The notes beneath the pieces are model-generated. The model worked only from the letters and a program-made list of their open reading frames with translations. It had not been told where the DNA came from and ran no database searches. This document shows positions 3,956-64,000 of a stretch of DNA of 64,000 nucleotides, one piece after another. The DNA comes from Octopus sinensis (taxonomy: Eukaryota), in NCBI RefSeq assembly GCF_006345805.1, contig NC_042998.1, positions 132,742,001 to 132,806,000 on the forward strand, written 5' to 3'. Each line of letters begins with the position of its first letter. Within the stretch, counting starts at the first letter, position 1. Position numbers and translations under genes: made by a program.

Positions 3956-4353
3956 AAGGCGGCGAGCTGGCAGAAACGTTAGCGCACCGGGCGAAATGCT
4001 TATCGGTATTTCATCTGCCGCTACGTTCTGAGTTCAAATTCCGCCGAGGTCGACTTTGCCTTTCATCCTTTCGGGGTCGATTAAAGAAGTACCAGTTACA
4101 CATTGGGGTCGATGTAATCGACTTAATCCGTTTGTCCTTGTTTGTCCTCTCTGTGTTTAGCCCCTTGTGGGTAGTAAAGAAATAGGTATTTCGTCTGTCT
4201 TTACGTTCTGAGTTCAAATTCCGCCGAGGTTAACTTTGCCTTTCATCTTTTCGGGGTTCGATAAATTAAGTACCAGTTTCCTACTGGGGTTGATTTAATC
4301 GACTGGTCTCCTCCCCCCAAAAAGTTCGGGCCTTGTGCTGAGAGTAGAACAGG
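3956..4353 (+). mobile_element. tRNA-derived SINE family B dimer (Tx1-type-tail unit followed by the alternative-tail unit)
   Basis: One head GGCGGCGAGCTGGCAGAA and two bodies GAGTTCAAATTCCGCCGAGGT..CTTTGCCTTTCATC..TTCGGGGTCGAT (resembles the MetaSINE central domain, from memory). Flanked by a 15-bp TSD ATATGCGT(G/A)TATATA at 3941-3955 and 4354-4368. Confidence 0.9.
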
Positions 4354-5092
4354 ATATGCGTATATATACATACACATTAAAACAAACTTACATAGACGAC
4401 ATACATAGGTAACTACCTAGATGATGTTATCTTTATTGCATAAAGAGAAGCTTGTTTCTGGGTTAGAATCCAACTCCTCTATTTGAAAGAGATTTGGGAA
4501 ATATAACGAGAATAACATACGTACCTGCATGCATACATACATACATACATACATACATACATACATACATACATACATACATACATACATACGCACAGAC
4601 AGACAGAGAAATAGAGAAACAAGCAAACCGACAGACAGGCAGGCAGGTAGGGTAGTCAGACAAACAAACAAACAGACAGACAGGCAGGCAGGTGGGGTAG
4701 GCAGACAAATAGGCAGGCTAATAGAAAGATATACACATACATGCATATGTGGGAGCTAACAGTCTTCTTTGAAAGAAGGAGATTACGAGTTCGCGTCTCG
4801 TTCCTGTGATCAGTTAGCTGAATACCCCTTTTACATTCCAAGGAATATTGATGAAACATTCTTACCAAGGATTGTATTTTGCTGTGTAGCTAGCACTGGG
4901 AGTATTTTCATCCAATATCAAAAAAGGAACCTGCCTCAAAGGGCCTATAAACGTTATAGACGCTACCCCTTCTGCCAGAAATACAGAAGGACGATCTGAA
5001 GTTGACCTGAAGTAAAGAGGGCAAGTCATTGAAGATATCGCGAATGGATCCGAAAAGACTTTGATTAACATAACCAATTGATTTATTTACAG

Positions 5093-11458: not shown

Positions 11459-11670
11459 AGTAGCGAACTGGCAGAATCATTAGCACGCTGGACGAAATGC
11501 TTAGCGGCATTTCGCCCTTCGCTACGCTCTGAGTTCAAATTCCGCCGAGGTAGACTTTGCCTTTCATCAATTCGGAGTCGATAAATTATCAGTGAAACAC
11601 TGGGGTCAATGTAATCGACTAGTTCCCTCCCCCAAAATTTCAGGCCTTGTGTCTTTAGTAGAAACGATTA
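11459..11670 (+). mobile_element. SINE family B, alternative tail running into (ATT)n
   Basis: Head GCGAACTGGCAGAATCATTAGC, B-box GAGTTCAAATTCC, tail CCCCAAAATTTCAGGCCTTGTG..TAGTAGAAA, then (ATT)n to 11772. Confidence 0.85.
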
Positions 11671-11772
<102 letters not shown>

Positions 11773-12442
11773 TCTTTTTAGCACAGGTTTTGTTGGAACT
11801 CCTGGAGCCATACATGCGTAGCAGGATTGCAACCTGCAGCCTATGGTACCATGCCATCTATTCTTTTCAAGTATCTAATACTTTTCTGATTACTCTGGCC
11901 TTGCCAAGGAGGCAAACCTTTTGTAACAGTTCTACAGGGCACTCTATTCCAGTTTCCTTTATATTCCCCTTGATAGCTTCTGATACTGTTCCCAAGGACA
12001 CAACAATAATTGGCACTATCTTCACCTTCTTCATTTTCCATAGCCGAACTATTTTGTACTTAAGAGGGTTGTATTTGTCTATCTTTTCGCCTTACTTCTT
12101 GACTATTCGTGAGTCAATGAGGCATGCAGCATCAACTATATAGCATATATGGTGCACCTTTTCCATCACCACTAGGTCCGATCTGTCATGCTTTAGCACC
12201 TGATCTGTTTGGATTGGGGAATCCCAGAGTATTTTGCAAATCTCCGACTGCCACCCTCTACAGTTTGTGCTCATACCACGTCTTGCCTCTCTCTAGCCCA
12301 CCCTTTTCGCACAGTTTCCAATGTAGCGCTTTCGCTACATGGTCGTGTTACCACAACTTGTAGTGTTTGGGTAAAGTCTAGGGTATTCGCTCGTGATATG
12401 GGCAATGGTTTCATCCACTCTATTGCAGATGCAGCACAGCAG
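11773..12442 (-). mobile_element. R4/Dong-clade LINE 3' fragment, distinct subfamily, decayed
   Basis: KILWDSPIQTDQVLKHDRSDLVV...YIVDAAC (ORF 12092..12274) and LQKVCLLGKARVIRKVLDT*. (ATT)n on both sides. Confidence 0.8.
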
Positions 12443-12459
12443 ATATTATTATTATTATT

Positions 12460-15400
12460 ACTTTTTTTTTCTTCTTTCAAATTTGCTTCCATTTCTTGCC
12501 GAGTGTCTTCCCGACTCCTAGGGCAAAGAAACTCATAGTATACATTGGTAGGCCATTAAACCAAACTCAATAGTTCGTTAATTTTTTTTTTTTTTTAAGT
12601 TAAATTAAAATACATGAGCAGCAACTGTTCTCACATCGACAATGCTCTTCTCAATACGTGTGATGTACCAGTTAAGACAATCTTTTGCACTTCTTGCAGG
12701 GATGGTAAGCCAGGGATCATTCTCATATAATTTTCGGTTCCCTTCTTGATCATTCCTAGTGCTCCTACGATCACTGGTATTGTAACCGCCTTGAGATGCC
12801 ACATTTTCTCAATTTCAATAAGTAGGTCTTTATATTTTCTGAGCTTGTCAAACTCTTTCGCTGAGATATTATGATTACAGGGGATGCTCATGTCGATCAA
12901 TAAGCAAACTTTATTGTTTTGGTCTTTCACAACAATATCTGGTTTATTGGCCTTGATGGTTCGGTCTGTATGTATTGGAAAGTCCCACAGAATGGTTACA
13001 TTTTCTCCTTCAGTTACAGCCTCAGGGTGGCGATTATACTACTTGTCGGCAGTTTTGATATTGTAATGCCGACTTATTAGCCAGTGTAGATATTGGCCAA
13101 CTCTGTCATGTCTTAATTTATACTCCACTGGAGCTAAGACTTTACATCCAGAGATTAGGTGGTCCACTGTTTCAATCATGTCGTTGCAGAATCGGCATTT
13201 TGGGTCTGCTCCATTTTTCATCACATTGGCCTGGTAGTTCCGGGTTAATAGGCTTTGATCTTGAGCAGCCAGGATGAAACCTTCGCTCTCTGCTTTTAGC
13301 CCTGAGCTCCGTAGCCACTGATGGGTTTGCTTCTGGTCAACATCAGCTTGTTTGCTGCGGGTCACATATTTGCCGTGCAGAGGTTTCTCCTCCCACATAT
13401 CAGCCAATTGCTCGTGCGCTTTTTTCGTTGCCATTATTTTCACCTTCTTTGCAACAATAATTGCCGTACTTCCCTCGGGTTGTTCTGTTTGGGTATCCTG
13501 CACGAGATCAATAGCAAATTTTTTGCTTTCCTTTATGATAGAATGAAGCTTCTTTCGTCTCTCGTGATTTTCCACGAGCTTTAGCATCCAGTCATTCGAT
13601 ATTTCGAGATATTTGGCCAGTCCAATTGTGGTTATTTTGTAAGCTAGTTCAAATTGGATCAGGCCTCGACCTCCTTGGGCTCTGGGAAGGTAAAGGCGAT
13701 CTACGTCTGCCTTTGGGTGGTGCATCCTATTACAACTCAGCAGCTTGCGTATTTTCCTATCTATATTTTTTTTACTTCACTCATATTCCAGTTCAACACA
13801 TTGTAGCTATAAGTAACAACTGGAACTGCTGAGGAATTTATAGCTAACACCTTGTTACGTGCATTTAGTTCAGATTTCAGGACTGCACGAACTCTCCTAT
13901 AACATTCTTTCCTGATCTTCTCTTTCATGCTTGCATGCTGAATACCAGAGCCTTCATTTATCCCTAAATATTTGTATGTTTGTTCCTGCTCAAGCTCTCT
14001 TATGACTGTGTCAACATCTAACACGACTGAATTTGTGGTCTTCACTTTCCCTTTCTGGAAAGTGGCCTTGGCACACTTCTCAAGTCCAAACTCCATCCCG
14101 ATGTCATCGCTGAATGCTTTCACAGTGCGCAATAGGCCTTCAAGTTCATTATTGTCTTTACCATAAAGTTTTAAGTCATCCATATAAAATAGATGGCTTA
14201 TTTTTTTATTGGCAATTTTATACCCATACCCTGTTCTGTTTAATTCACTTGTAAGGGGTATTAGGGCTATGCAGAATATTAAAGGTGAAAGTGAGTCACC
14301 TTGAAAAATTCCACAGTTGATGTTTATATTTTCTGAGGCAAGTACTCCATTAGAGTGGTATAATTGGAGATTCGTATTCCACAACGACATATTGTGCTTC
14401 AGGAAGTTTGAAATCACAGGGGAAATTTTGAAGATGTCCAGCGATCTCAAAATCCATGGATGCGATATACTGTCGAAGGCCTTTTTATAGTCAATCCATG
14501 CGGTGCTGAGATTTCTGCGCTTGTTGTGACATTTCTCAAGGATCATACGATTGATTAGCAGTTGATCTTTGCATCCGTAAGAGCCTCGGCGACACTCTTT
14601 TTGTTCAATGGGGAAAATATCGTTCTTCTCCATGAATGCATATGTTTTCTCCGCCAGGATAGATGTTAGGATTTTATACGTGGTGGATAGACAGGTTATA
14701 GGCCGATAGTTTTTTGGAAGGTTGGTTTCGTTATTCTTTGGGAGTAGATAAGTAATGCCACTTGCTAACCATTCAGGTGTTTTCTTTGGGTCTCTCATAA
14801 TTCCATTGAGCAGCTGAACTAGCTTACCGTGTGCGCATGGGAGCGATGCGAGCCAGAAATTCGGCACCCTATCTTTACCGGGGGATTTCCAATTATGGGC
14901 CTTCGTGAGTGCCTTTCTTAGGTCTGCTATTGTGATGTCTTCCCATGCTTGTTGTTGTAAATTTTGGTAGGATCCTTCAGTTTGTATAATCCAGTCTGTA
15001 TTTATGTTGTACGTCTTCTTGTCACTCCAAATACTTTTCCAAAAGTTTTGAACTTCTTCCATGGGAGGGGGGTCTTTAACGGTTACTTTCTCCTTCCCTA
15101 TTTCTCTGTAGAATTTTTTGGCATTGGATGTGAACAGCTTATTTTGCTTGTAAAACTTGTTTCTCTTCTCAAATCTTCGTATTCTTTGGGCTTTTGCTTG
15201 GACTTTTTGTTTCAGCGTTTCTTTTATTGATATCAGTTCTTTTCTTGGTGAGGATCCAAATTTTCTCTTCATCTTTCTTCCTGTTCTGGATCTTACATCA
15301 TTTCCACATATTAGTTCATTTAATATTGATATTTCCCCTCTCATAAATTCAATCTCTTTTTCAATTTTACTTCTCCAGGTTTGATTTCTTCCCAGGTTAG

Positions 15401-15749
15401 GTTTTCTTTGTTTTTTCGGGGGCATACAGCTGGTTTCAATTGCCCTAGCAGAAGCGTAAATAATTTCATTTAACTCAGTGAAATCAGGTTTTAATTCTCG
15501 TATTATTTCATTTGTTACATAGTTGCCAATTTGGATTTGTTTTTTATTTTGGTTTGTATTTGAGAGTTTATGAAGTGGTTCTCTATCATTCATACTTGTA
15601 TGTCTTACAACTTCAAGTGTATTCAGGATTTTCTGCCTCATTTCTGCCATAGACTCTCTGTGTTCTTCAGCAAATGCGAGATCTTCAGTTACTGTTGTTT
15701 TTTCGTTTTCCTGGCTATCTTTAACAGGTACAATAGAATTTCTTGTATC

Positions 15750-15750: not shown

Positions 15751-15825
<75 letters not shown>

Positions 15826-15827
<2 letters not shown>

Positions 15828-15881
15828 CGTTCTGAGTTCAAATTCTGCTGAGGTCGACTATTATTATTATTATTATTATTA

Positions 15882-15918
<37 letters not shown>

Positions 15919-16067
15919 CGTTCTGAGTTCAAATTCTGCTGAGGTCGACTTTGACTTTCATCTTTTCGGGGTCGATAAATTAAGTACCAGTTGCGTACTG
16001 GGTGGATCTAATCGACTGGCCCACTCCACAAAAATTTCGAGCCTTGTGCCTAGAGTAGAAAAGATCA

Positions 16068-16448: not shown

Positions 16449-16699
16449 GATTACTCGGAAACTTTCGTGGCAAATATTTAAAATTAAATCTACTTTACTG
16501 CGAGAAAGAGAACATATAAGACAACGTGTGTCAGCTTAGAAGCAGAGGATGAGAAAAGGAAGCGTAAGTCCAAATTTTAAAAGATACTTTTGGAGAAGGT
16601 TATGATTTATTAAATTCACTCTTGTACTTCACTGCTAATATATTTTATCGAACCAGGAGAATCAAATGTACAAAATATTGATCTCAATTTTTGGCACCC

Positions 16700-16877
16700 G
16701 GCCAGTAAGATCAAGTCGAATCATCCCCGGTGCTCAACTGGTACTTATTTTATCGACCTCAAAAGGATGAAGGTGCAAAGTCGACCTTGGCGAAATTTTC
16801 ACTGAACGTAAAGATGGAGGAATTTCCGCTAAGCATTTTGCCTGGCGTGCTAACGATTCTGCCAGCTCATCGCCTTG
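16700..16877 (-). mobile_element. SINE family B copy
   Basis: Reverse complement of head and body (GGATGAAGGTGCAAAGTCGACCTTGGCG...GCTAACGATTCTGCCAGCTC). Confidence 0.8.
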
Positions 16878-17857: not shown

Positions 17858-18860
17858 ATTTATGGTTTCGTTTCATTATAACTATATTTCAGCTGTCTTA
17901 GTACCGGGCATCCCCCAGAGGCCAAGAGTTGCAAGGGCACTTTTGTTATGCTATACATGCTAACATTATCAGCACATTTATTCCATTTTAGACGGAGAGT
18001 GCTTTCCGTAGTATATGGGCTGTACCCATCAAGGTTATCTGTTGTAGTTCACGGAGATGGAGTTACCAGGGAGTTACTTAATATACTTTTCAGCTCCCTT
18101 CTTTATTATCCGCAACGCACCAATTACTACTGGTATTAGCGTAGTACAAAGCTTCCACATTTTTGTGATTTCAATTTGCAGATCTTTATAGTGAGAAAGC
18201 TTTTCGCATTCCTTTCTTGAGACATTTTGATCTTGTGGGGCAGACATATCTAGTAACAGACAAGTTCCTCTGTTGTAGTCCACGATCACAATGTCTGGTC
18301 AACTGGAGTCAATTTTCCTGTCTGTTTGTATTGGAAAGTTCCAAAGTATGTTGACACCCTTGCCATTTATAACATCCGCTGGATGGTGCCTGTACCACTT
18401 ACCATGGGATTTAATATTGTAGTATTTACAAGCATTCCAGTGGATGTACTGCCCTGGTCTGTCATGTCTTGTGAGGTACTTCTTTTCAGCGAGGTCTCCG
18501 GTAGCCAGAAACAACATGATCAATTGTCTCTGTGAAATTTCCGCAAATTCTGCACGAGGAGTCAGATCCGTCTTTAAGAACGTTTGCATGGTACTTTCTG
18601 GTAGGTAAGCTCTGATCTTGTGCTGCAATAACAAAACCTTCTGTTTCCCCTTTCGGACATGTCCCTTGTAACCATTGGTGAGTTAGATTTTCATAAATAT
18701 CTGGCTTGGACGGGTGGTTAAGGTATTTTCCATGCAGGAGTTTACCTTTCAAGTTCTCTTCGATATTATTCATGCAAGCCTTCTTTGCTTTTTGTTTGAC
18801 GCTTTTTGCATCAGTGTTAGGTTTGTCACTATTTGGATCTTCTTCTTCTTCTTCTTCTTC
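17858..18860 (-). mobile_element. R4/Dong-clade LINE 3' fragment, distinct 3' UTR
   Basis: LHGKY, ETEGFVIAAQDQSL.TR.Y, CRIC..ETIDHVVSG, RHDR, ILWNFPIQTD, LLDMSAP, K..HYKDL across ORFs 18074..18773. Flanked by (GTT/ATT)n and (CTT)(ATT)n. Confidence 0.88.
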
Positions 18861-22540
<3,680 letters not shown>

Positions 22541-27904: not shown

Positions 27905-28098
27905 TATTCTTTTACACTTTTACTTGTTTCCGTCATTTGACTGCGGCCATGCTGGAGCACCGCCTTTAGGCGAACAAATCGACCCGAGAACTTATTCTTT
28001 GAATGCGTAATACTTATTCTATCGGTCTCTTTTGCCGAACCGCTAAGTAACGGGTACGTGAACACACCAACATCAGTTGTCAAGCGATGGTGGAGGGA

Positions 28099-28168
<70 letters not shown>

Positions 28169-28342
28169 GTATACGCATATACGACGGGCTTCTTTCAGTT
28201 TCCGTCTGCCAAATCCACTCAAAAGGTTTTGGTCGGCTCGAGGCTGTAGTGTAAGACAATTGTCCAATGTGCCACATAGTGGGACTGAACCTGGAACCTT
28301 GTGGCAGGGAAGCCAGCTTCTTTACCACACAGCAACTCCTTT
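27905..28342 (-). mobile_element. SINE family A, full length
   Basis: Reverse complement of 86..470 over its whole length, with an internal (CA)n. Confidence 0.88.

Positions 28343-31875: not shown

Positions 31876-31964
<89 letters not shown>
31875..31964. repeat. (GATA)n tract at the 3' junction of the Tx1 LINE
   Basis: Directly visible; the matching tract is at about 36009-36097. Confidence 0.95.
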
Positions 31965-34900
31965 TGTTTCTTTATTAGCCACACAGGGCTGCACACAGAC
32001 AGGACAAATTACAAGGTAGAGCTTTTCTTTTGGGGGTAAAAAAAGAAGGTTTGGTTTTCGATCAAAAGGGATCGTAAAAGGAAAGAAAGAGGCCAAAAAA
32101 GGAGGGGATAAAAAAATAATAATAATAAAAAGGGGGGAAGGGAAAGAAAAAAAAATTGATCAATAGGGATCGTTATCACAGAAATGTCAATATGAAGTGT
32201 AAAGGGGAGGACAGGTGAGGTTTACCCGTGGAAAGAAAAGCCTACGGAAAAGACCGCGGTAACCTCGGTCAATGAAGTCATGTTATATTTCTTTTTTTTT
32301 TTTTTTGCAAATAAGCAACTCTCTGTTTTAAATTTTTACGGTTCATAGAATCATAGTCAAGGTAGCTTCGTCATTCATACGTGCCATCCTTGCTACATTC
32401 ACCCATCTTTTTTTAAAACATTCACTAGACAAAACTTGCCTCTCTACTCTCACTTTCCTCCTCAAGTGATACTTGAAGAAGTTGATGAGAGATTGACCAG
32501 AGAGGAAAGTGTTTGTCTCTAATCCTTTCAGGCGCGTCCACCAGATACATTCTTTCGCCATAGCCACAAGTATGATAAAAATAGCTCTTCCCTTCCCGTT
32601 TGAAGGAAGGAGGCGTGACGATATTAACGATAGACTCGGCTGATAAACCGACACGTCCCACACGTGACAGCAGTCGTTCGACATAAGCCCACAGGTCGGA
32701 GATTGTTGGACACTGCACGATTGCGTGCAGAGCGGTTTCGTCGCTCTGCCCGCATCTCGGACAGGTCGGCCCCGTGTTTCTCGAGCCATGCCTATACAGC
32801 TTATCCCGAACGGGTATTGCTTCTCGGTAGCACCGCCAGGCCAGGGATCTCTGGAAGTTGTCCATAGGTCCCGGCCCGAAAGTCGTTTCATACAGGCGGG
32901 TCAGGTATTCCTCGTCGACGCCCAGGTTTGCCCCAAGATCGTCGTCGTACCTCCCCTCCACTAATCCCCTATAGAATGCTTTGGTTGTGTTGAAGTCACT
33001 CAAGGTCGACCCGGGACGGCAGAGTTGCTTGAGAGCAACGTGACACTCGCGGTGCCATTCGTCCTTCCTCGGCCTCTTTTTGATCCACGACTGCAGTTCG
33101 GTCATGGAGACGAGCTGCGGGAACGCGTGCCTCACAAACGGCGACCACACCTGTTCACCGTCGTCTACGTAGAGCCGGAGATGTCGCAGTCTCAGCGCGT
33201 CTCTGCGCATCATCAACCATGGCATGCCCAGCCCTCCTTTTAACGGGTGTTGACAGCAAATGGATCGCCTGACCATCGGGACGCATCCTTTCCACAAGAA
33301 GCGGAAGAGAATGCGTTCTAGTTTGGTGATGGTAGGGTCGGGACAAGGTACGACGGTCAGGCGGTAGTAGATGATGGACGCGATGTACGTGTTCTCCACC
33401 TCCGCCCGACCTTTTAGGGACAGTTTCCTCTCGGCCCATTGCCGGGCGAGTGTGACCACCCTACTCGTTATCTCGTTCCAGTTCTTCTCCATTTGGAGGT
33501 CCGGACCGAACAAGACCCCGAGCAACTCAACCGGGCCGTCTGTCCAGCGTCCCACGACGGAGGTACTGGTGGACGGCATGGGCTTGCTTCTCCAGGTGCC
33601 GAGCCGCAAGCCCACTGACTTTTCCCGGTTGATTTTTGCTCCTGTCACCGCTTCGTAGTCTTTCAGTGTCTCGCCGACCAGCTCGATGTGCTCGTGGCTT
33701 GACACTATGACGGTGACGTCGTCCGCGTATGCAGACACGCTCGTCCCGCATCCCAATTCTCGCGGGATGCCCCTCAGAGTCGCCAGCTTCCGCAGTGCTC
33801 AATAGTCAATACGTATAGAAGCGCCGAGAGTGGGCATCCCTGACGGACCGAACGTGCAATGTCGAAAGGTCTCGATAGATGTCCATTTACGCGAATTACC
33901 GAACGGATGCCTCTGTACAAGGCAGCTATCCAGCCGCGGAAGACGGGACCGAAACCAGCCGCTCTCAGGACTGCCTCCAAATATCGATGGTCTACCCTAT
34001 CGAAGGCTTTCGATTGATCCAAGTTGATCAGGGCCCCACCCATGCCAGGTTCCTTAACTACTCTGTCTATGATGTAGCGCATCAGATGGAGGTTGTCATG
34101 GATGCTCCGGCCCGGCACGGCGCACGTTTGTGCGTTGTCGACCTGTTTCTCGATGACAAGCGCCAACCTCTTGGCTAACACCTTTATCAAAATTTTCAGG
34201 TCTGCATTGAGCAGAGTGATTGGTCTAAAGTTATCTATAATGTTCCCCCTGTTTGGATCTTTCTTCAGCAGCGTTACGGCTCCTCGACTCACAAAACCGG
34301 GTATGCTCCCGTTTTGCTGCCAGTTGCAATATACCGCTGCCAAGACGTCTCCAAACAAGTCTGGCATACAATTGTAAAACTCGTAGGGCAGACCATCCAA
34401 ACCCGGCGATTTGTCTCTCGAGCATTCTGCCATCGCGTCCCGCACATCCGCCGCCGTGATGGCACCTTCGCAGCACTCTGCCTCTCTTGCCGAGAGTCGT
34501 GGTATGCTGTGCAGGTAGGCACTGAAGTCCACCCTGCGTTCACGCTCGCCACTCGTCCCGTACAGTCGGGAAAAGTGCCGCTGAAATGTCTCGCACATCT
34601 TGCTGGGCTCGAGCAATTCGCGCCCTTGTTCATCTACCAGAGACCGAATGGTGGCTTTGTTGCCCTGCTGCGCCTCCGCCACCCGGGCCTCCCTCGCGGC
34701 TCCAACACCTTCCATCCTTAGAGCACGCATCCTAGCCCTGACAGCACACCCTTCGTGTTTGGCGTTGAAGTGTTGGTCAAGGGCCAACCTCGCCGCTAAA
34801 ACGTTGGATGTGATGCCGCTTCTTATTACCTCTTCTAACTTCTTAACTAACTCACTCTCTACTCTATTTCTATCTACGGCTAGTGCCTTGCTATATCTAG

Positions 34901-36004
34901 TTGCTTCCGCTTTTACTGCTCTCTTGAGGGCGAACCACCATTTATTGTTGACAATGGCTCCCGTTAAAGCCCTTTTTACTAACGTGTTGATTCTGTCACT
35001 GAAAACCTGTCTGGACGGGAAAGATGCGTTCAGTTTCCAGTAACCAGGACCCTGTCTATGTGCCTTATCTAAGTCTAGCGTACACGTCACGAATTTGTGA
35101 TCCGTGTAGCTGACTGTGTGGAATTGTGGACATCCTAAGTTATCCCTGTCTACTGTCCTACACAGTATCCTATCTAGATACGATCTCGACGACCCACTGC
35201 GGTTGCTCCATGTCCACGTTGGTGCATTCGGGTGGTCGAGTCGGTACCTGTCAGACAGTTGGAATCGTCTGAGCAGGTCTCTGAGGCATTTGCATCCCCT
35301 TCTGTTTTTGTCTCTCCCCACATAGTCTAGATGCGTGTCCAAGGTAGCATTCCAATCCCCCACTAAAAGTAAAGGACGAGACGTTCCCAGGAATACCACT
35401 AGACGTCGAAAGAAATCCGGCCGACCTGTTAAAGGCGGTGCGTAGACTGATACGAGTCGAAAAGCACACCCATTGCTGCCGTCGACATCCAGAACGACCA
35501 GTCTACCCTCCGGGTCTACGAATATCGTCTTGACTTCGAGATCCAGGCTCTTGTGAAAAAGTACCGCGGTGCCACTACCACCCATCCTCGGCAGACAGGG
35601 AGCAAAATAAATGTTAAACTGTCCGCCAAACATGGACTTTAGGGCCCGTGGCTCGTGGAGTCTGGTCTCACTTATGGCTATGATTCCCAAATCGTGTGAC
35701 TTGATGTCATTTAGGAGGTATCCTGGTTTCCAAGGAGACCCCCAAGCCACGCGCATTCACACAACCAATCTTGACCATGATTCTATTGGGGTGTGTGCTT
35801 TAAAACACAAAAAGGAAGGTACAGAGAGTTACTTGTGTCGAAAGTTTTGGCTTCCTCGTCCTTTGATGTGTCTTGGAGAAGGTTTTTATAGAGTTTTTGC
35901 GAAAGGTATTTTTGGAACCCCCCAACCGCATTTGGAAAGAGAGCTTTGAGTGTGTGGTGTTGTGTTTGTGTGATGTGTAGTATTTTGATGTGTTTGGGTG
36001 GTGT

Positions 36005-36008
<4 letters not shown>
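31965..36008 (-). mobile_element. Tx1/L1-clade LINE, 5'-truncated just upstream of ORF2, inserted in (GATA)n
   Basis: APE-RT-CCHC ORF2 plus a 3' UTR of about 380 bp ending AATAAAGAAACA directly against (TATC)n. (GATA)n on both sides. Visibly more GC-rich than the flanks. Confidence 0.93.
32343..35778 (-). pseudogene. Tx1-type ORF2 (APE endonuclease, reverse transcriptase, CCHC), complete but with three frameshifts (near 35740, 33795, 32590)
   Basis: MVKIGCVNARGL, AISETRL, VYAP, VGDWN, SYLDRI, TDH, GYWKLN, KSPGLDG, NFRPITLLN, DQSKAFDRV, VRQGCPLS, AYADD, CPRC...ETALHAIVQC. No in-frame stops seen within the segments. Confidence 0.93.
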
Positions 36009-36088
<80 letters not shown>

Positions 36089-39541: not shown

Positions 39542-41032
39542 TATATATATATTATATATATATATATATATACTTGTACAAACACACACAAGCACACACA
39601 TATGTGGGTGAGGATATGTATGTACGTATTTTTTCCAAATTTTATTGTATCTTTGTAAAGGAATGTTCACATGTACATAGCTTGCAACTTTGCAGCTTTG
39701 CCCTCACGATCTGTAGACATCAGGAAAACTCATTTTACCAAAATGCTTGTTGCTGTATCGCTTGCAAGTTAAGTATTAAAGTACAAAACAAAAGGCGCTC
39801 TTTCCAACGGAACAGTTGCTATCGTTTAACACCATTTCCTTTTTGTATGTTCTTCACATTAAATATATGTATTTGTGTAGATGTTTATTGGTCTCGAAGA
39901 AGGCAATGTGTCTATAACCTTAGCAAGCAACCGAGACCGGTGAGGTCGAAGTGGTCAATGCTTGTCGTGAACATTTGCAAGAAGACGACTGCAGGAAAAC
40001 GTGCTGAAAGGGAGTTGACGTCCTGGGGAGGAGGAATAAACATGGTGGTTCATATAAAATCTTGAAGACTGACACAGTAAGGTTGATGGGTGGAGGGAAA
40101 GGCGAGTATGTTGGGAGTACCTTAGTGGAAGCGATACCGGACTTGTCAACTCCGCGGCATAGTATCCAAATGTAATCGCGGTAGAAAAGACAAACAACTG
40201 AGATTGCACATGTGAGAGACAGAATTTGGAGCGTCTGTGAGTGACTTCATGCTTTTCTTTGGATGTTTGTCGAGAGTGTCCGTGTGTATAATAACATACT
40301 GTCCCAAATGTGGTAGCAATAATACTCTACCAGTACACCTGAGATTTATAGATAGTTGTTGCAGGTGGCAGAAGTATTTTCTGATATAGTAGGGGAAAGC
40401 TAGTGATAATGATGCAGTTTTAGCTACATTGTGGATGTACGCTCAAAAGGAGTGATTCTCAGTAAGGCCTAGCATTTGAGGCGAGTATTGTATCCTGTTG
40501 AAAGAAGGGGCTTTTATTAATGAGAAACTAGTCAAGTTGCAATAAGCAAACACTATAACACAGCAATTTACAAAAGCGGGCGGAGACGCTCTCTCGGCAA
40601 GAACATAATTCTTGCTTTTTATGATAATAGCTTATGCTTTGAATAGTCTATTGTTTGGGCTAGCATTTTTTCTTTTGCTTAGTTTTCTACTTCTAGCGCA
40701 AAAGTAGTAATGATTGCTCAATCCAAAACATCGATCATACGATTTTAGACATTGACAGCCAGTATCTAGGTTCTATTTGCATGCCGTTTTTGATACAGAA
40801 GGGGAGAAATGCGCGCGCGCGCGCGCGCGTGTGTGTGTGTGGTGTGTGTGTGTGTGTGCGGTTAATGAATCTTTGTGTTGGGGGAAAAAGGACATGTTTA
40901 CCTATGATAGATATCTTATCATAATTCAGCTGGCTTTTTTTTTTTCGTTTTACCTGAATGCTTATAAGTAATTTTGAAAAATGCATCCTGTATCTCGTAG
41001 TATGTAGAACCTTGCATCTTGTGGTATACCGA

Positions 41033-41260
41033 GTTGAGCTGGCAGAAACGCTAGCGTGCTGGGCGAAATGCTTAATGGTATTTTGTCTGCCGTTACGTTC
41101 TGAGTTCAAATTCCACCGAGGTTGACTTTGCCTTTCATCCTTTCGGGGTCGATTAAATAAGCACTAGTTACGCACTGGGGTCGATATAATCGACTTAATC
41201 CGTTTGTCTGTCCTTGTTTGTCCACTCTGTGTTTAGCCCCTTGTGGATAGTAGAGAAATA
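41033..41260 (+). mobile_element. SINE family B monomer with Tx1-type tail
   Basis: Perfect 10-bp TSD GGTATACCGA at 41023-41032 and 41261-41270. Ends TTTAGCCCCTTGTGGATAGTAGAGAAATA. Confidence 0.92.
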
Positions 41261-41419
41261 GGTATACCGAATCAGCGTCAGTCCAGTAGTACGATCAATT
41301 TAATTCAGTATGTTACCTTTTCCTGATAAATACGCTGTCATGTACTAATGTTAAACAAAAATCAACAAGTGTTATTTCCAGGATCTCTTACATTTAAACT
41401 TCAAAATAAGAAACGGGAA

Positions 41420-44204: not shown

Positions 44205-44702
44205 TTTTCAATTGCTTCAGTCATTAGACTGTGGCCATGCTGGGTCACTACCTTGTAGAATTTTGGTCGAATGTATCGACCGCAGTACATATTTCATTTT
44301 TTGCTAAGCCTGGTACTTATTCTGTAAATCTCTTTTGCCGAACCGCTAGGCTACGGAGCCGTGAACACACTAGCACTGGTCGTCAAGCGATGCGAGGGTA
44401 CAACACAGACACAAAGACATATACACACACATTCTTTTATTCTTTCATTCTTTTATTCTCTTACTTGTTTCAGTCATTTGACTGTGGCAATGCTGGGGCA
44501 CTGTCTTGTGTCGAACAAATCGATCCCAGGTCTTATTATTTGTAAGACTAGTGCTTATTCTATCAGTCTCTTTCCCCAAATCGCTAAGTTACGGGGACGT
44601 AAACACCCAACATCGGTTGTCAGGCGATGGTGAGGTACAAACACAGACACACAAATACAGATACGCAGACACACACACACACACACACACATACATACAT
44701 AC

Positions 44703-44738
<36 letters not shown>

Positions 44739-45045
44739 ACGACAAGCTTCTTTCAGTTACCATCTACGAAATCCACTCACAAGGCTTTGGTCGGCCCGAG
44801 ACTATAGCAGAAGACACTTTTCCAAGGTTCCAAGCAGTGGGACTGAATCCGGAACCAAGTGGTTGGGAAGCAAGCTTCTTACCACACAGCCCACTCCTGC
44901 GCCTATATACATATATACGATAGGCTTCTTTCACTTTCCATCTACCAAATCCATTCACAAGACTTTGGTCGGCTCGAGGCTATAGCAGAAGGTGCCATGC
45001 AGTGGGACTGAAGATAGAACCATGTGGTTAGGGAGCAACCATCAA
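44205..45045 (-). mobile_element. Cluster of SINE family A copies (tail fragment, full copy, extra head fragment)
   Basis: Repeated CAGTCATT.GACTGTGGC, TTATTCT, AAATCCACTCACAAGGCTTTGGTCGGC and GCAGTGGGACTGAA motifs. Confidence 0.8.
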
Positions 45046-46369
45046 AGAAATACCACACAACCATGGAAAAAAAATACTAAATGCAGAGTATTTTACGTAA
45101 AATTCTAAAGAAAGGCAAAGAAGAAAAGAGTGCAGGAAGAGAAAGAGAAGAAAGGGAATGCAGTCACCCAGTCGACGGATACGAAAACACAGCTTGGCAC
45201 CCTACTATCTCGCAAGAGGACCACGTGCGTCAGAGAAAAAAATACCCACCACCAGTCTATACCACGTGATCGCTTGCATAAGGAAGCGAGAATGTGTTGG
45301 GTGTGAAACTTTCGGAGAATAAACTTAGATTTCCAGACATTGTTGATAGCGTAATTCTGTAAAAACATGTATATGTGTCTGAGCGTTGTTTGATGTCGAC
45401 ATGGTCCAGTAAGTCGACAAATAGTCATTAGAGTCACACTCGAAGGCTTGCCTTTAGTGATTCAAGGATGTATATTTGCTCAAGTGGTTCCCGTTGTGTT
45501 CTCTTGCCTCTTGCGGTGATCTGAGATTTACTGTTACAAAATATATATATATATTATATATATATATATACACGACAAGCTTCTTTCAGTTACCATCTAC
45601 GAAATCCACTCACAAGGCTTTGGTCGGCCCGAGACTATAGCAGAAGACACTTTTCCAAGGTTCCAAGCAGTGGGACTGAATCCGGAACCAAGTGGTTGGG
45701 AAGCAAGCTTCTTACCACACAGCCCACTCCTGCGCCTATATACATATATACGATAGGCTTCTTTCACTTTCCATCTACCAAATCCATTCACAAGACTTTG
45801 GTCGGCTCGAGGCTATAGCAGAAGGTGCCATGCAGTGGGACTGAAGATAGAACCATGTGGTTAGGGAGCAACCATCAAAGAAATACCACACAACCATGGA
45901 AAAAAAATACTAAATGCAGAGTATTTTACGTAAAATTCTAAAGAAAGGCAAAGAAGAAAAGAGTGCAGGAAGAGAAAGAGAAGAAAGGGAATGCAGTCAC
46001 CCAGTCGACGGATACGAAAACACAGCTTGGCACCCTACTATCTCGCAAGAGGACCACGTGCGTCAGAGAAAAAAATACCCACCACCAGTCTATACCACGT
46101 GATCGCTTGCATAAGGAAGCGAGAATGTGTTGGGTGTGAAACTTTCGGAGAATAAACTTAGATTTCCAGACATTGTTGATAGCGTAATTCTGTAAAAACA
46201 TGTATATGTGTCTGAGCGTTTGTTTGATGTCGACATGGTCCAGTAAGTCGACAAATAGTCATTAGAGTCACACTCGAAGGCTTGCCTTTAGTGATTCAAG
46301 GATGTATATTTGCTCAAGTGGTTCCCGTTGTGTTCTCTTGCCTCTTGCGGTGATCTGAGATTTACTGTT

Positions 46370-50700: not shown

Positions 50701-51519
50701 TGTGTGTGTGACTGTGTGTGTGTGTGTGTGTGTATGTGTACGTATATATGTATGCGTATAAGTATTTATTTAGGTTTGTGTATGGCAACTACTGCGGCTA
50801 TATTTGCAATTGTGTATGTACACTTGTGTGTGTGTGTGTGTGTGTGTTTTCGTGTCTGTGTGTCTGTGTGTTTGCGTGTGCGCGTGTGTGTGTGCGCGCG
50901 AGCATGTAAAACCACAGACTGTTCCTGAACTTGAAAACTATACGAAAACTAGCTGTGTATATATATAACCAGATCTAGTTTATTCTCGCAAATGCACCGA
51001 ATGACATTGTACGGTGTGAATTCTAGGGAAACAGGCAGAAGCTATTTGAATTAGAGGCTTTGGTGCTAAGCTTAATATTTTCGGTTTCGGCTGGATAATT
51101 GGTTCCAGTGAATGGGACCAAAATTGCACCTTCACCTTCACCTTCCTCTAGCTCTCCATTTTATAGAAGTTTTCCACCATCACCACAACTATGAGCACCA
51201 CCATCACTAGGACCTCTCTCTCCTCCACCAAAAGCATCACCACCATCTCCACATTAGCTATACTCTATTTGCTTCATATATAAGACTGGCTTGCAAAGAA
51301 TGTATCGTTACTGATCGCTTACGGATTCATGCACTGTTATTGTTGTTGTTGCGGAGAAAAACTCTCTCTTCTTCTCTCTTTCTCTTTCTCTATCACTCTC
51401 TCACACACACACATGCGCATATTCGTACGTAAACACGCACCCTATGTATATTATCCGTTAGTCGTGCGTAAATCAGAAAAAATATCACTCAAATATATTA
51501 AGGCAAATATTTATTTATA

Positions 51520-51705
51520 TCCTTTTCTACTCTATGCACAAGGCCCGAAATTTTGGGGGAGGAGACCAGTCGAGTAGATCGACCTCAGTACGCAACTGGT
51601 ATTTAATTTATCGACCCCAAAAGGATGAAAGGCAAAAATGACCTCGACGGAACTTGAACTCAGAACAAAAACAGACGAAATACTGCTAGCGCCCAGCGTG
51701 CTGAA
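51520..51705 (-). mobile_element. SINE family B, alternative tail
   Basis: GCACAAGGCCCGAAATTTTGGGG...CAGTCGA...GGATGAAAGGCAAA...GAACTCAGAAC. Confidence 0.8.
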
Positions 51706-53838: not shown

Positions 53839-54061
53839 TATTTCTTTACTACCCAGAAGGGGCTAAACATAGAGGGGACAAACAAGGACCGACAAAGGGA
53901 TCAAGTCGATTACATCGACCCTAGTGTGTAACTGGTACTTAATTTATCGACGCGGAAAGGATGAAAGGCAGAGTCGACCTCGGCGGAATTTGAACTCAGA
54001 ACGTAACGGCAGACGAAATATCGCTAAGCATTTCGCCCGGCGCGCTAACGCTTCTGCCAGT
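53839..54061 (-). mobile_element. SINE family B monomer with Tx1-type tail
   Basis: TSD (TCA)TCATTATC at 53828-53838 and 54062-54072. Tail ...TTTAGCCCCTTCTGGGTAGTAAAGAAATA. Confidence 0.9.
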
Positions 54062-54724
54062 TCATCATTATCGTCGTAGTCGTCGTCGTCATCATCATCC
54101 AAATAAAGATCGGTACCCACCATTTTTAACTGCCAATTCATTCTCAAATGTTATGATAAGAAGCAGTGGGAAATAAGCTATTACAAGACCAGTTGCAAAA
54201 ATCCTCGTTATTGCAAAATAAGATTCTTACGTTTGATTATAGATTGCTAATTGCTACATGGAAGTTTGGTTGATAAGTTGCCTGCAATGAAGAATAGAGG
54301 TGAATTATTTCGGGAATGATGACTGCCTTAGACCATTGTTCACAATGTTTCTGATCCCTAAGGGACAGCTAAAACATGTGCAAGGAATAAACGGTGAAGT
54401 AATCAGTAATGTACGCTACGTTTTTTGTTTCGAAACCGAAAGTGTTTGTATCTAAGATTTGGATCAATATTAATCCGTTTAGGAGATGTTGATCGGAATG
54501 GGATAATTATTATTACTCTCGAAAAACCAATCTTTGAGTAGATTTCGGTGCCTTCTTGATGACTGTTCATTTTGATTTACTTAATGTGGCCGATACCCTT
54601 CACACGGTTGCAAACATCAAACGCGCGCGCACGCATACACACATATACACACATGCACACAGACACACACACACACACACACACACACATTCGTTTCCCA
54701 TTTTGTAAATTTATCGCCAGCTGC

Positions 54725-57224: not shown

Positions 57225-57792
57225 TTCTAGGCGTGCATAACTTTTGTTTTTTAATGTTATGAAAATGGACTCGTGCTTTAGATGTTATAGTGTATGATGT
57301 CCTTCATACTTTCTCTAAGAGTATTAACAACATAAAAGTCGGAAATGTTCGATTAAGATTCACCTGGTGCTGAGCAAGAACGACATTTTAACATAATAAG
57401 CATTCACTGTTGACATTTTAACATAATGAACATTCACGGCGTTAGTTCAATAAGAATTTGAAACTGCATCGTTGTATCGGTTTGATGGTAGTGTATCTGT
57501 TGTTCTATGTCACACGTAAGTTAAAATAGCTTAATATCAATATCTTGCATAGGCACAAGTCTCAAATATATATAAAAAAAGAGCTCTAGTCTACTGGATC
57601 GATTGCCTGTATATTGCTGACATTCGTTCTTGTCGATCTTGGGAGATGAAATAAAATCACCAAAACTATGTACTGAAAGGGATGTTGCCTGATGCTCTGC
57701 CGATTGACATCGCATGACCATTGATACAGCTTAATATCCGAAAATATAAGCAGTTTATAAACGTCGACTTGGCTAACACAGTCAATAAAATA

Positions 57793-58462
57793 TCGAGGAG
57801 GTGGTATCATAAAGCTCCTGGTCTAGTTGTTTAATAAAAAATAACTTATTTACATAATTTTTTACGAGAAACTTACTAGTAAGGAGAACTCCGTGACAGG
57901 GTGCATTATGGTCGAGAAGAATCCAGTTCTTCACGCTCCACAGGTCCGGTCGCTTTCGCTGAATGTCCTCCCTCAAACGCTTCAAACATTGCAATAGAAT
58001 TTTCGATTGACAGTTTGGCTCTGATAGACAAATTCTTGATGTACAATACCATATTTCCGGAGGTGACACTCGTGGCAAATCTTCCAGATCGCTCACCGTC
58101 TTCAAGGGACGGTCTTCGCTTTTGAAGCGCCCGTGCCACTTGAAACATTGTGTACGAGTCGTTGCCTCGTCGCCGTAAGTTTGCCGAAACATGCTTAATA
58201 TCTCTGACGCAAACTTCCGAAGCTTAATGCAAAATTTCACGTTGGCTTTTCGTTCCAACTTCCTGTCCATGGCAAAATCGCAGACTACAGCATACACGTG
58301 ATCACAAAAACATATTTCGCATCTTGCGAAGTAAACACAGAGATGTCACTCGGCCCAATGCCTCATGAAGGTCATTGCTAGCTCTCATTGCGCACGCAGC
58401 CGTGTACTGCCATCTGTTGGCACGCTACAGAACTAGTCCTGGAACTTCTTGTTGCCATCTCG
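57793..58462 (-). mobile_element. mariner transposon, internally deleted, both TIRs recognisable
   Basis: ORF 57782..58297 ERKANVKFCIKL.K.ASE..M..TYG, DGERSGR, LKRLREDIQRKRPDLW..WILLDHNAPCH. TIRs GAGGTGGTATCATAAAGCTCCTGGTCTAGTT / AACTAGTCCTGGAACTTCTTGTTGCCATCTCG|TA. Confidence 0.85.
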
Positions 58463-63017: not shown

Positions 63018-63294
63018 TTATTGTCAATTCTAAATGTGAAACTGTAGCGTAATACTCCTCTTTTACCGAATGGCATTTGGTAAACGTCCCCTTCGTATGT
63101 TTTTGCAAAAAGAAAAAAATAATAATAATAATGATAAATAAATAAATAAATAAATAAAACAAGAAGAAAAAAGAGGAAAAGAAACGTTATTTTAATGAAA
63201 CAGAAGCTAATTTCAAGTGATGGCTTAATATTATTTTCTTATTCCATATTAGCGATGGGAAACAGTATTAGTTCCGAACACTAATAGTGGATAT

Positions 63295-64000
63295 ATTCTT
63301 TTCTCCTCTAGGGACAAGGCCTGAAATTTTTAGGGAGGGGCCCAGTCGATTAGATCGACTCAGTACGCAATTGGTATTTAATTGATCGACCCCGAAAGGA
63401 TGAAAGGCAACGTTGACCTCAGTGGAATTTGAAATCAGAACGTAATGGCAGACGAAATACCTATTTTTTACTACTCACAAGGGGCTATACACGGAGGGGA
63501 CAAACAAGGACAGACAAAGGGGTTAAGTCGATTATATCGACCCCAGTGAATAACTGGTACTTAATTTATCGATCCCGAAAAGATGAAAGGCAAAGTCCAC
63601 CTCGGCGGAATTTGAACTCAGAACATAAAGACAGACGAAATACCGCTAAGCATTTCGCCCGGCGTGCTAACGTTTCTTATTTATTTATTGCCCACAAGGA
63701 GCTAAACATAGAGGGGATAAACAAGGACGGACAAAGAGATTAAGTCGATTACATTGACCCCAGTGCATAACTGGTACTTAATTTATCGATCCCGAAAAGA
63801 TGAAAGGCAAAGTCGACCTCGGCGGAATTTGAACTCGGAACGTAAAGACAGACGAAATACCTGTTTCTTTACTACCCACAAGGGGATAAACACAAAGAGG
63901 ACAAACAAGGACAGACAAACGGATTAAGTCGATTATATCGACCCCAGTGCGTAACTGGTACTTATTTAATCGACCCCGAAAGGATGAAAGGCAAAGTCGA
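63295..64000 (-). mobile_element. Head-to-tail array of at least four SINE family B units, running off the window edge
   Basis: Junctions at 63461/63462, 63677/63678 and 63861/63862. Three units have the Tx1-type tail; the terminal unit has the alternative tail. Confidence 0.92.

Follow-up and report, generated by a model that had tools for sequence, protein, structure and literature searches.

We analyzed a 64,000-nucleotide stretch of the Octopus sinensis genome (NCBI RefSeq assembly GCF_006345805.1, contig NC_042998.1, positions 132,742,001 to 132,806,000; hereafter the window), in which a long interspersed element (LINE) and several copies of a short interspersed element (SINE) carry similar 3' ends. 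The LINE, a retrotransposon of the non-LTR type (lacking long terminal repeats), lies on the minus strand and comprises the following features, with positions counted from the first letter of the window:

31965-36010, minus strand: 5'-truncated non-LTR retrotransposon of the L1 group (likely Tx1), lying within a (TATC)n microsatellite
36010-36085, unstranded: (TATC)n tract forming the 5' flank of the LINE, in the same orientation as the 3' flank
35783-36010, minus strand: 75-codon open frame with its stop 4 nucleotides (nt) before the ATG of open reading frame 2 (ORF2), likely a C-terminal ORF1 remnant
32343-35778, minus strand: ORF2, with APE-type endonuclease, reverse transcriptase and C-terminal CCHC (Pfam PF03372, PF00078 and PF13966, zf-RVT)
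31965-32342, minus strand: 3' untranslated region (UTR), T-rich and A-rich in places and without a poly(A) tail
31965-32016, minus strand: tail common to the LINE and to SINE type T1, consisting of a 44-nt core and an upstream CCTTG
31977-31990, minus strand: predicted 4-bp hairpin with a 6-nt loop, followed by AATAAA at 31971-31976
31877-31964, unstranded: (TATC)n tract forming the 3' flank of the LINE

ORF2 is disrupted by three frameshifts, near 35765, 33800 and 32585, and aligns in three frame blocks with an intact relative, P0221, at 66-70% identity. Its best match among solved structures is human L1 ORF2p (E = 1.6e-43, residues 6-653), with R2 proteins at 5e-14; this Protein Data Bank comparison returned no CR1, L2 or RTE ORF2 among its matches to set against L1. 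Judged by its sequence, ORF2 belongs to the L1 group. The nearest named relatives are Argonauta hians proteins, 56-58% identical to the window frames, and several further relatives reach 64-69% protein identity. The reverse transcriptase motif takes the form DQxKAFDRV, which we take to be Tx1-like. In keeping with a Tx1-type microsatellite preference, (TATC)n borders the LINE on both sides, and the same repeat follows the tail in two other copies. Since a microsatellite target is a hallmark of Tx1 elements, and since L1-Tx1 outweighs L1 five to one in Octopus vulgaris according to the available text of its assembly report (PMC13282606), the LINE is likely a Tx1 element rather than L1 proper; no Tx1-named reference was among the matches in the protein searches with ORF2. 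The 75-codon frame likely represents the ORF1 end of this 5'-truncated element; tblastn with the ORF1-like relative P0046 returned no match. ORF2 queries against viral, genome and metagenome contigs returned no loci. A large separate ORF2 group (P0031, P0241, P0249 and clusters), about 40% identical to the LINE lineage overall and 50-56% in the reverse transcriptase region, occurs on long contigs of other organisms.

An initial annotation of the window had claimed that the LINE 3' end matches a SINE tail at 36 of 44 positions, ungapped and co-terminally, that both share an upstream CCTTG, and that neither has a poly(A) tail. Our comparison of the LINE end (31965-32008, minus strand) with the SINE tail (4141-4184, plus strand) reproduced the match in full (36/44 identical, ungapped, co-terminal). 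CCTTG is indeed common to the LINE and SINE tails, with 3 extra nt before the core in the LINE, and the letters read at both ends revealed no poly(A) after the LINE tail or after the T1 tails of the SINE. When both strands of the window were scanned without gaps for the 44-nt LINE end, exactly six further matches stood above background, among them all five additional copies that had been proposed (at 41210-41260, at 53839-53890 and three times in 63462-63915):

4141-4184, plus strand: SINE tail match to the LINE end, 36/44
63862-63905, minus strand: SINE tail match to the LINE end, 35/44
41217-41260, plus strand: SINE tail match to the LINE end, 34/44
53839-53882, minus strand: SINE tail match to the LINE end, 33/44
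63678-63721, minus strand: SINE tail match to the LINE end, 31/44
63461-63504, minus strand: SINE tail match to the LINE end, 30/44

The next-best site in the window after these six SINE tails scores 25/44, so that no site falls between 25 and 30. Shuffled 300 times, the LINE tail gave best-of-window scores of 24.7 on average and 28 at most. A BLASTN search with the entire 4-kb LINE gave the tail match an E value of 1e-5. By these alignments, the 3' end of the LINE and the T1 tail of the SINE are homologous.

The 44-nt segment is the true, family-wide 3' end of the LINE. Contigs of four runs (X1, X3, X5 and X8, bearing four organism labels, from 24 listed) were mapped to positions 31950-32850 at 85% likeness, and 32147, 21928, 7804 and 5810 contigs were recovered in the four runs; the LINE family is therefore multi-copy and varied in all of them. 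Coverage is unbroken across the UTR-tail junction in all four runs. In X1, the summed depth, which is not a copy number, amounts to 2.40M in the tail (position 32000) versus 2.11M and 2.19M in ORF2 (positions 32388 and 32675). Two of the 32 contig pieces listed bridge the 3' UTR, the tail and the repeat: X1 record 1 (31954-32074) and X8 record 25 (31953-32081), which are other copies of the LINE, because they differ from the window at 15 and 18 positions, respectively. Tail variants were found at 32000, 32001 and 32003 among the 40 variant rows listed, the letter of the SINE being absent at 32000 and none of the SINE letters appearing at the other SINE-diagnostic tail positions in the same rows. 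It is from these LINE-type variants in four runs, together with the two divergent bridging copies, that the tail can be assigned to the LINE family. No loose ends fell at the UTR-tail junction among the rows listed, and 10 contigs in X8 form a loose-end group that runs on into TAGA/TAGG repeats. Two joints, at 32363 in X1 and at 31999 in X3, pass from the 5' side of the LINE into the same repeat; these joints would mark additional 5'-truncated LINE copies within the microsatellite, one of which would comprise little more than the tail.

The SINE is short (about 230 nt), non-coding and interspersed, and is represented in the window by 12 monomers at 8 loci. The monomers have a common head and body and diverge after a short palindrome into three tail types, T1 (six monomers), T2 (five) and a degenerate T3 (one):

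3957-4184, plus strand: T1-tailed SINE monomer (tail at 4141-4184) that opens a T1-T2 dimer; tRNA-like A and B boxes recognized by eye
4185-4357, plus strand: 5'-truncated, T2-tailed SINE monomer that completes the dimer
41036-41260, plus strand: stand-alone T1 SINE with a 10-nt target-site duplication (41023-41032 and 41261-41270)
53839-54063, minus strand: stand-alone T1 SINE in GAT-rich repeat sequence; an 11-nt duplication was identified by eye, and a different 12-mer by the script
63293-64000, minus strand: head-to-tail array of three T1 monomers (tails at 63862-63905, 63678-63721 and 63461-63504) and one T2 monomer, continuing past the window end
11463-11668, plus strand: SINE with T2 tail, followed by (ATT)n
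15917-16066, plus strand: 5'-truncated SINE with T2 tail within (TTA)n
51519-51690, minus strand: SINE with T2 tail and a 10-nt duplication
16670-16876, minus strand: older SINE copy with the same head and body and a degenerate T3 tail

The segment at 4141-4184, which had been taken for a SINE terminus, lies inside the 3957-4357 dimer, and this dimer is flanked as one unit by a near-perfect 15-nt duplication (8 nt exact, the rest by eye). More generally, four of the six T1 tails run into another monomer, three times from the same internal GGTAT site. It is the other two T1 copies (41036-41260 and 53839-54063) that stop at the LINE-equivalent terminus, each with a target-site duplication of its own, and for these the description as a terminus holds.

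Several features of the SINE loci deserve mention in their own right. GGTAT follows four of the six T1 tails, at junctions 4184/4185, 63861/63862, 63460/63461 and 41260/41261; in three cases it is the same internal site of another SINE head, past the loop of the head hairpin, and in one case it starts an unrelated duplication. This recurrence may reflect either a target preference or jumps of the reverse transcriptase between SINE RNAs that build the arrays. Several T2 duplications begin with ATAT or GATAT. A T1 monomer followed by a truncated T2 monomer occurs twice, at 3957-4357 and 63293-63677 (84.6% over 390 nt), and is possibly a dimeric subfamily. A 91-nt tandem duplication at 15769-15950 covers a truncated SINE's 5' piece together with the (TTA)n that flanks it. 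No match to a degenerate tail motif was present in metagenome contigs.

The tail can form the terminal hairpin listed above, which is present in the minimum free energy folds of the LINE tail and of the 4141 SINE copy. The CU(G)UGU loop is enclosed by the stem AGCC/GGCU in the LINE, by GCCC/GGGY in T1 and by RGGC/GCCU in T2. When 12 tails (the LINE, six T1 and five T2, with T3 excluded) were submitted to RNAalifold, the helix was found unprompted; 83% of its cells pair over these tails, a value equaled by 0 of 500 shuffles, and controls slid along the alignment reach 25-60%. Two of the four stem pairs differ on both sides between T1 and T2. These compensatory changes are suggestive of a conserved hairpin, although they would amount to about two historical events and the permutation chance without T3 is 0.11. 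The small stem-loops proposed by the initial annotation can thus form in both tails, and the T1 and T2 stems covary, but the hairpins have no stability beyond that of shuffled sequences.

The T1 tail is homologous to the 3' end of an L1-group, likely Tx1, LINE, and we propose with moderate confidence that the SINE has been copied by the ORF2 of that lineage, probably by that of a sister or ancestral family. The SINE would be transcribed by RNA polymerase III from its tRNA-like head, and an ORF2 of the Tx1 lineage would bind the transcript in trans, at its terminal hairpin (a 4-bp stem with a CU(G)UGU loop) and at its purine-rich end. Its endonuclease would then nick the target, and target-primed reverse transcription would begin at the tail, leaving duplications of 10-15 nt. 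T2, carried by the same SINE body, would represent a second version of the recognition element, its shape kept by compensatory stem changes, and a different sister LINE might serve it. Two further reverse transcriptase elements occur in the window (12.4-15.7 kb and 18.9-22.3 kb), and their 3' ends match neither of the tail types T1 and T2. A wider proposal, which we put forward only tentatively, is that several tails derived from Tx1 (T1, T2 and perhaps T3) have been joined to a single SINE body, each keeping its CU(G)UGU-loop hairpin by compensatory stem changes and being read by its own Tx1 family, and that this is the first stringent L1/Tx1 pair of an animal.

A number of observations weigh against this partnership. 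Concerning the hairpin, its energy is no better than that of shuffled sequences in the LINE tail (z = -0.13) or in the 4141 copy (z = +0.02), and it is at chance level in 11 of the 12 tails folded (z from -1.05 to +1.56); the sole energetic exception (z = -2.36) has a different fold. For the family-majority stems of the LINE, T1 and T2, the permutation chance is 0.11, and it falls to 0.01 only with T3 added post hoc. The covariation corresponds to about two ancestral events in two related subfamilies, and such cases can beat all shuffles. Moreover, the hairpins of the LINE and T1 are one base out of register, and the T2 tail does not significantly resemble that of the LINE (43-372 of 1000 shuffles were as good). 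On the LINE side, no listed contig covers ORF2 to tail in one piece, the reading of the tail variants rests on the 40 rows listed, with 32 more outside them, and the depth bin 32105-32135 is empty; this T-rich bin was skipped in mapping and is crossed by joints such as 32073-32174 and 32088-32174. Regarding the SINE head, A- and B-box-like motifs were recognized by eye, and complementary head ends both by eye and in the fold. ARAGORN, however, found no tRNA in it and Rfam gave no match at E values up to 10, so that a tRNA origin can be proposed at the level of motifs only; for a tRNA head, the SINEBase standard asks for 60% or more identity with a tRNA across 60 nt.

Further points of the same kind concern the identity of the mobilizer. 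Once the copy with a deletion is excluded, the five T1 copies agree mutually at 38.2 of 44 positions on average, versus 31-36 with the LINE; five tail columns are fixed for a letter other than that of the LINE (5/5 copies), and a further three differ in 4/5. In addition, 0 of the 8 SINE loci lie within (TATC)n, unlike the LINE, so the two have no common insertion signature. Because the endonuclease sets the target, the location of the SINE loci outside (TATC)n, together with the fixed tail differences, makes a sister or ancestral family a more likely mobilizer than the exact (TATC)n-embedded one. The mismatch of insertion contexts argues against this exact LINE family and not against its lineage. 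Of the initial proposal that the SINE captured its tail from a Tx1 LINE and is mobilized by a Tx1 ORF2, the tail homology, the family-wide LINE end and the L1-group ORF2 stand, whereas the insertion contexts and the fixed differences speak against this particular family as the mobilizer.

The T1 tail may instead be a relic, acquired from the LINE lineage long ago, after which recognition was relaxed or the SINE switched partner, for example via T2-ended dimers. We consider this unlikely. Such a history would agree with the four of six T1 tails that precede another monomer and with the flanking of the 3957-4357 dimer as a unit, with SINE sites devoid of the microsatellite preference of the LINE, and with the chance-level energy of the hairpin. 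It is opposed by the two T1 copies whose ends coincide exactly with the LINE-equivalent terminus and which have duplications of their own, and by the compensatory stem changes between T1 and T2, which suggest selection on the shape of the tail.

A capture in the reverse direction, in which a master copy of the LINE took its last 50 nt from a T1 SINE by template switch or 3' transduction while another LINE moves the SINE, appears improbable to us. In its favor, T1 and T2 are attached at one and the same point of a common SINE body and have the same hairpin loop, which may make the hairpin an old feature of the SINE; the LINE tail resembles T1 only, and the homology starts abruptly after a low-complexity UTR. 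On the other hand, the usual direction of transfer is from LINE to SINE, as stated in the available text of a survey by Ohshima (PMC3747384), and the only terminal AATAAA of the LINE sits in the tail (31971-31976). LINE-specific letters are also found in the tail copies of four runs, so that any capture must predate the spread of the LINE family.

The initial annotation had itself named the case of a SINE fragment abutting this one LINE copy as a danger to its proposal. A very abundant SINE (12 monomers in 64 kb) would lend itself to this, but what the contig mapping revealed across the junction was continuous coverage in four runs and divergent copies from X1 and X8 carrying the tail between UTR and repeat, and the LINE tail differs from every T1 copy compared at five fixed positions; this possibility is thus largely refuted and retains a very small probability. 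Mere chance or low-complexity similarity, conceivable for so short and TG/A-rich a tail, has a negligible one, being refuted by the shuffles (36/44 versus a maximum of 28 in 300), the score gap of the ungapped window scan (25 to 30) and the co-terminal placement.

The window holds further elements besides the LINE and the SINE. The two other reverse transcriptase elements (12440-15749 and 18860-22342, both on the minus strand) are bordered by (TTA)n/(AAT)n and had no APE endonuclease match in the ORFs scanned; from their motifs, we presume them to be of the Dong/R4 type. A second abundant SINE-like family, with internal (TG)n, is found at 83-470, 521-744, 27918-28340, 44206-45862 and other places, and has a short body piece and the palindrome in common with the T1/T2 SINE, with a different tail. 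At 44905-45862, near-identical blocks 833 nt apart probably represent a tandem duplication, and 57782-58345 (minus strand) contains a Mariner/Mos1-type transposase fragment (PF17906, HTH_48, below strong significance).

Octopus SINEs named OK, OR1 and OR2 were reportedly described as tRNA-derived by Ohshima and Okada in 1994, and the present family may well be one of these or an entry of Repbase or Dfam. By eye, its body is unlike the bivalve MetaSINE alignments, in which a 66-bp Meta domain follows the head, as far as the supplement of PMC4824008 presents them. A tail-sharing L1/Tx1 pair from an animal was not found in the open-licence papers searched, and Repbase, Dfam or SINEBase may already record the SINE or the pair; tails or SINE partners are not discussed in the available portions of the octopus repeat literature examined. 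According to the accessible text on the O. vulgaris assembly, SINEs make up 11.7% of it, most of them unclassified, and 56 Mb are taken up by 80 L1-Tx1 families (PMC13282606). The partnership proposed here, if true, names a likely driver for part of the octopus SINE expansion.

Recognition of a 3' stem-loop is the working model for the stringent pairs of the L2, CR1 and RTE clades; according to the available text of Hayashi 2014 (PMC4176376), which deals with UnaSINE1-UnaL2 and ZfL2, recognition by ORF2 is experimental for L2-clade proteins only; the 29 occurrences of "Tx1" in that article are names of mutants and do not denote the element. The mechanism proposed for the octopus pair would resemble this recognition. 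Tx1 elements have been proposed to mobilize a SINE before, since Kojima 2015 tied the crocodilian SINEU to Tx1-Mar by target preference, and no LINE with the 3' end of SINEU-1 is reported in the available part of that article (PMC4494074); the octopus pair differs in having a common 3' end without a common target preference. The same source describes microsatellite-specific Tx1 families, namely Kibi in (TC)n, Koshi in (TTC)n and crocodilian Tx1 in (TTCC)n/(TTTC)n (PMC4494074). The octopus LINE is similarly an APE-type L1-group element in a simple repeat, but its target is (TATC)n, and it is likened to these families by its type of target.

The closest parallels are found in maize and Chlamydomonas. 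In the accessible text of the survey by Ohshima, only three SINEs with L1-clade tails are counted among 58 pairs: ZmSINE2 and ZmSINE3 with LINE1-1_ZM of maize, and SINEX-3_CR with L1-1_CR of Chlamydomonas (Ohshima 2012, PMC3472496; Ohshima 2013, PMC3747384); the portion of its pair table available lists none for Tx1 and none for octopus (PMC3747384). The SINEs of these pairs combine a tRNA-type head with a short 3' end common to an L1-clade LINE; the octopus SINE has such a 3' end and a putative tRNA-type head, proposed from its motifs. In the maize pair, the last 45 nt are described as forming a hairpin whose stem bases vary and compensate while the loop is conserved (PMC3747384), and the common segment of the octopus elements is of about the length of this conserved end. 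The known cases, however, involve L1s of plants and algae, and the pair from the alga has a poly(A) end, whereas the octopus case concerns an animal and likely the Tx1 branch, lacks poly(A), and has its LINE in a microsatellite. Since L1-clade tail pairs are known from maize and Chlamydomonas, the novelty here is limited to the animal host and the Tx1 branch and does not extend to such pairs as such. On these three plant and algal SINEs rests the still open model, as set out in the available text, that the L1 group was ancestrally stringent and was later relaxed toward poly(A) in mammals (PMC3472496, PMC3747384). If the proposal of several Tx1-derived tails is true, animal L1-group enzymes kept a structure-specific recognition of RNA, and the poly(A) recognition of mammalian L1 is derived. 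An animal L1/Tx1 pair, if real, with its 45-nt tail, four-pair hairpin and natural stem variants, would make the stringency model testable close to mammalian L1.
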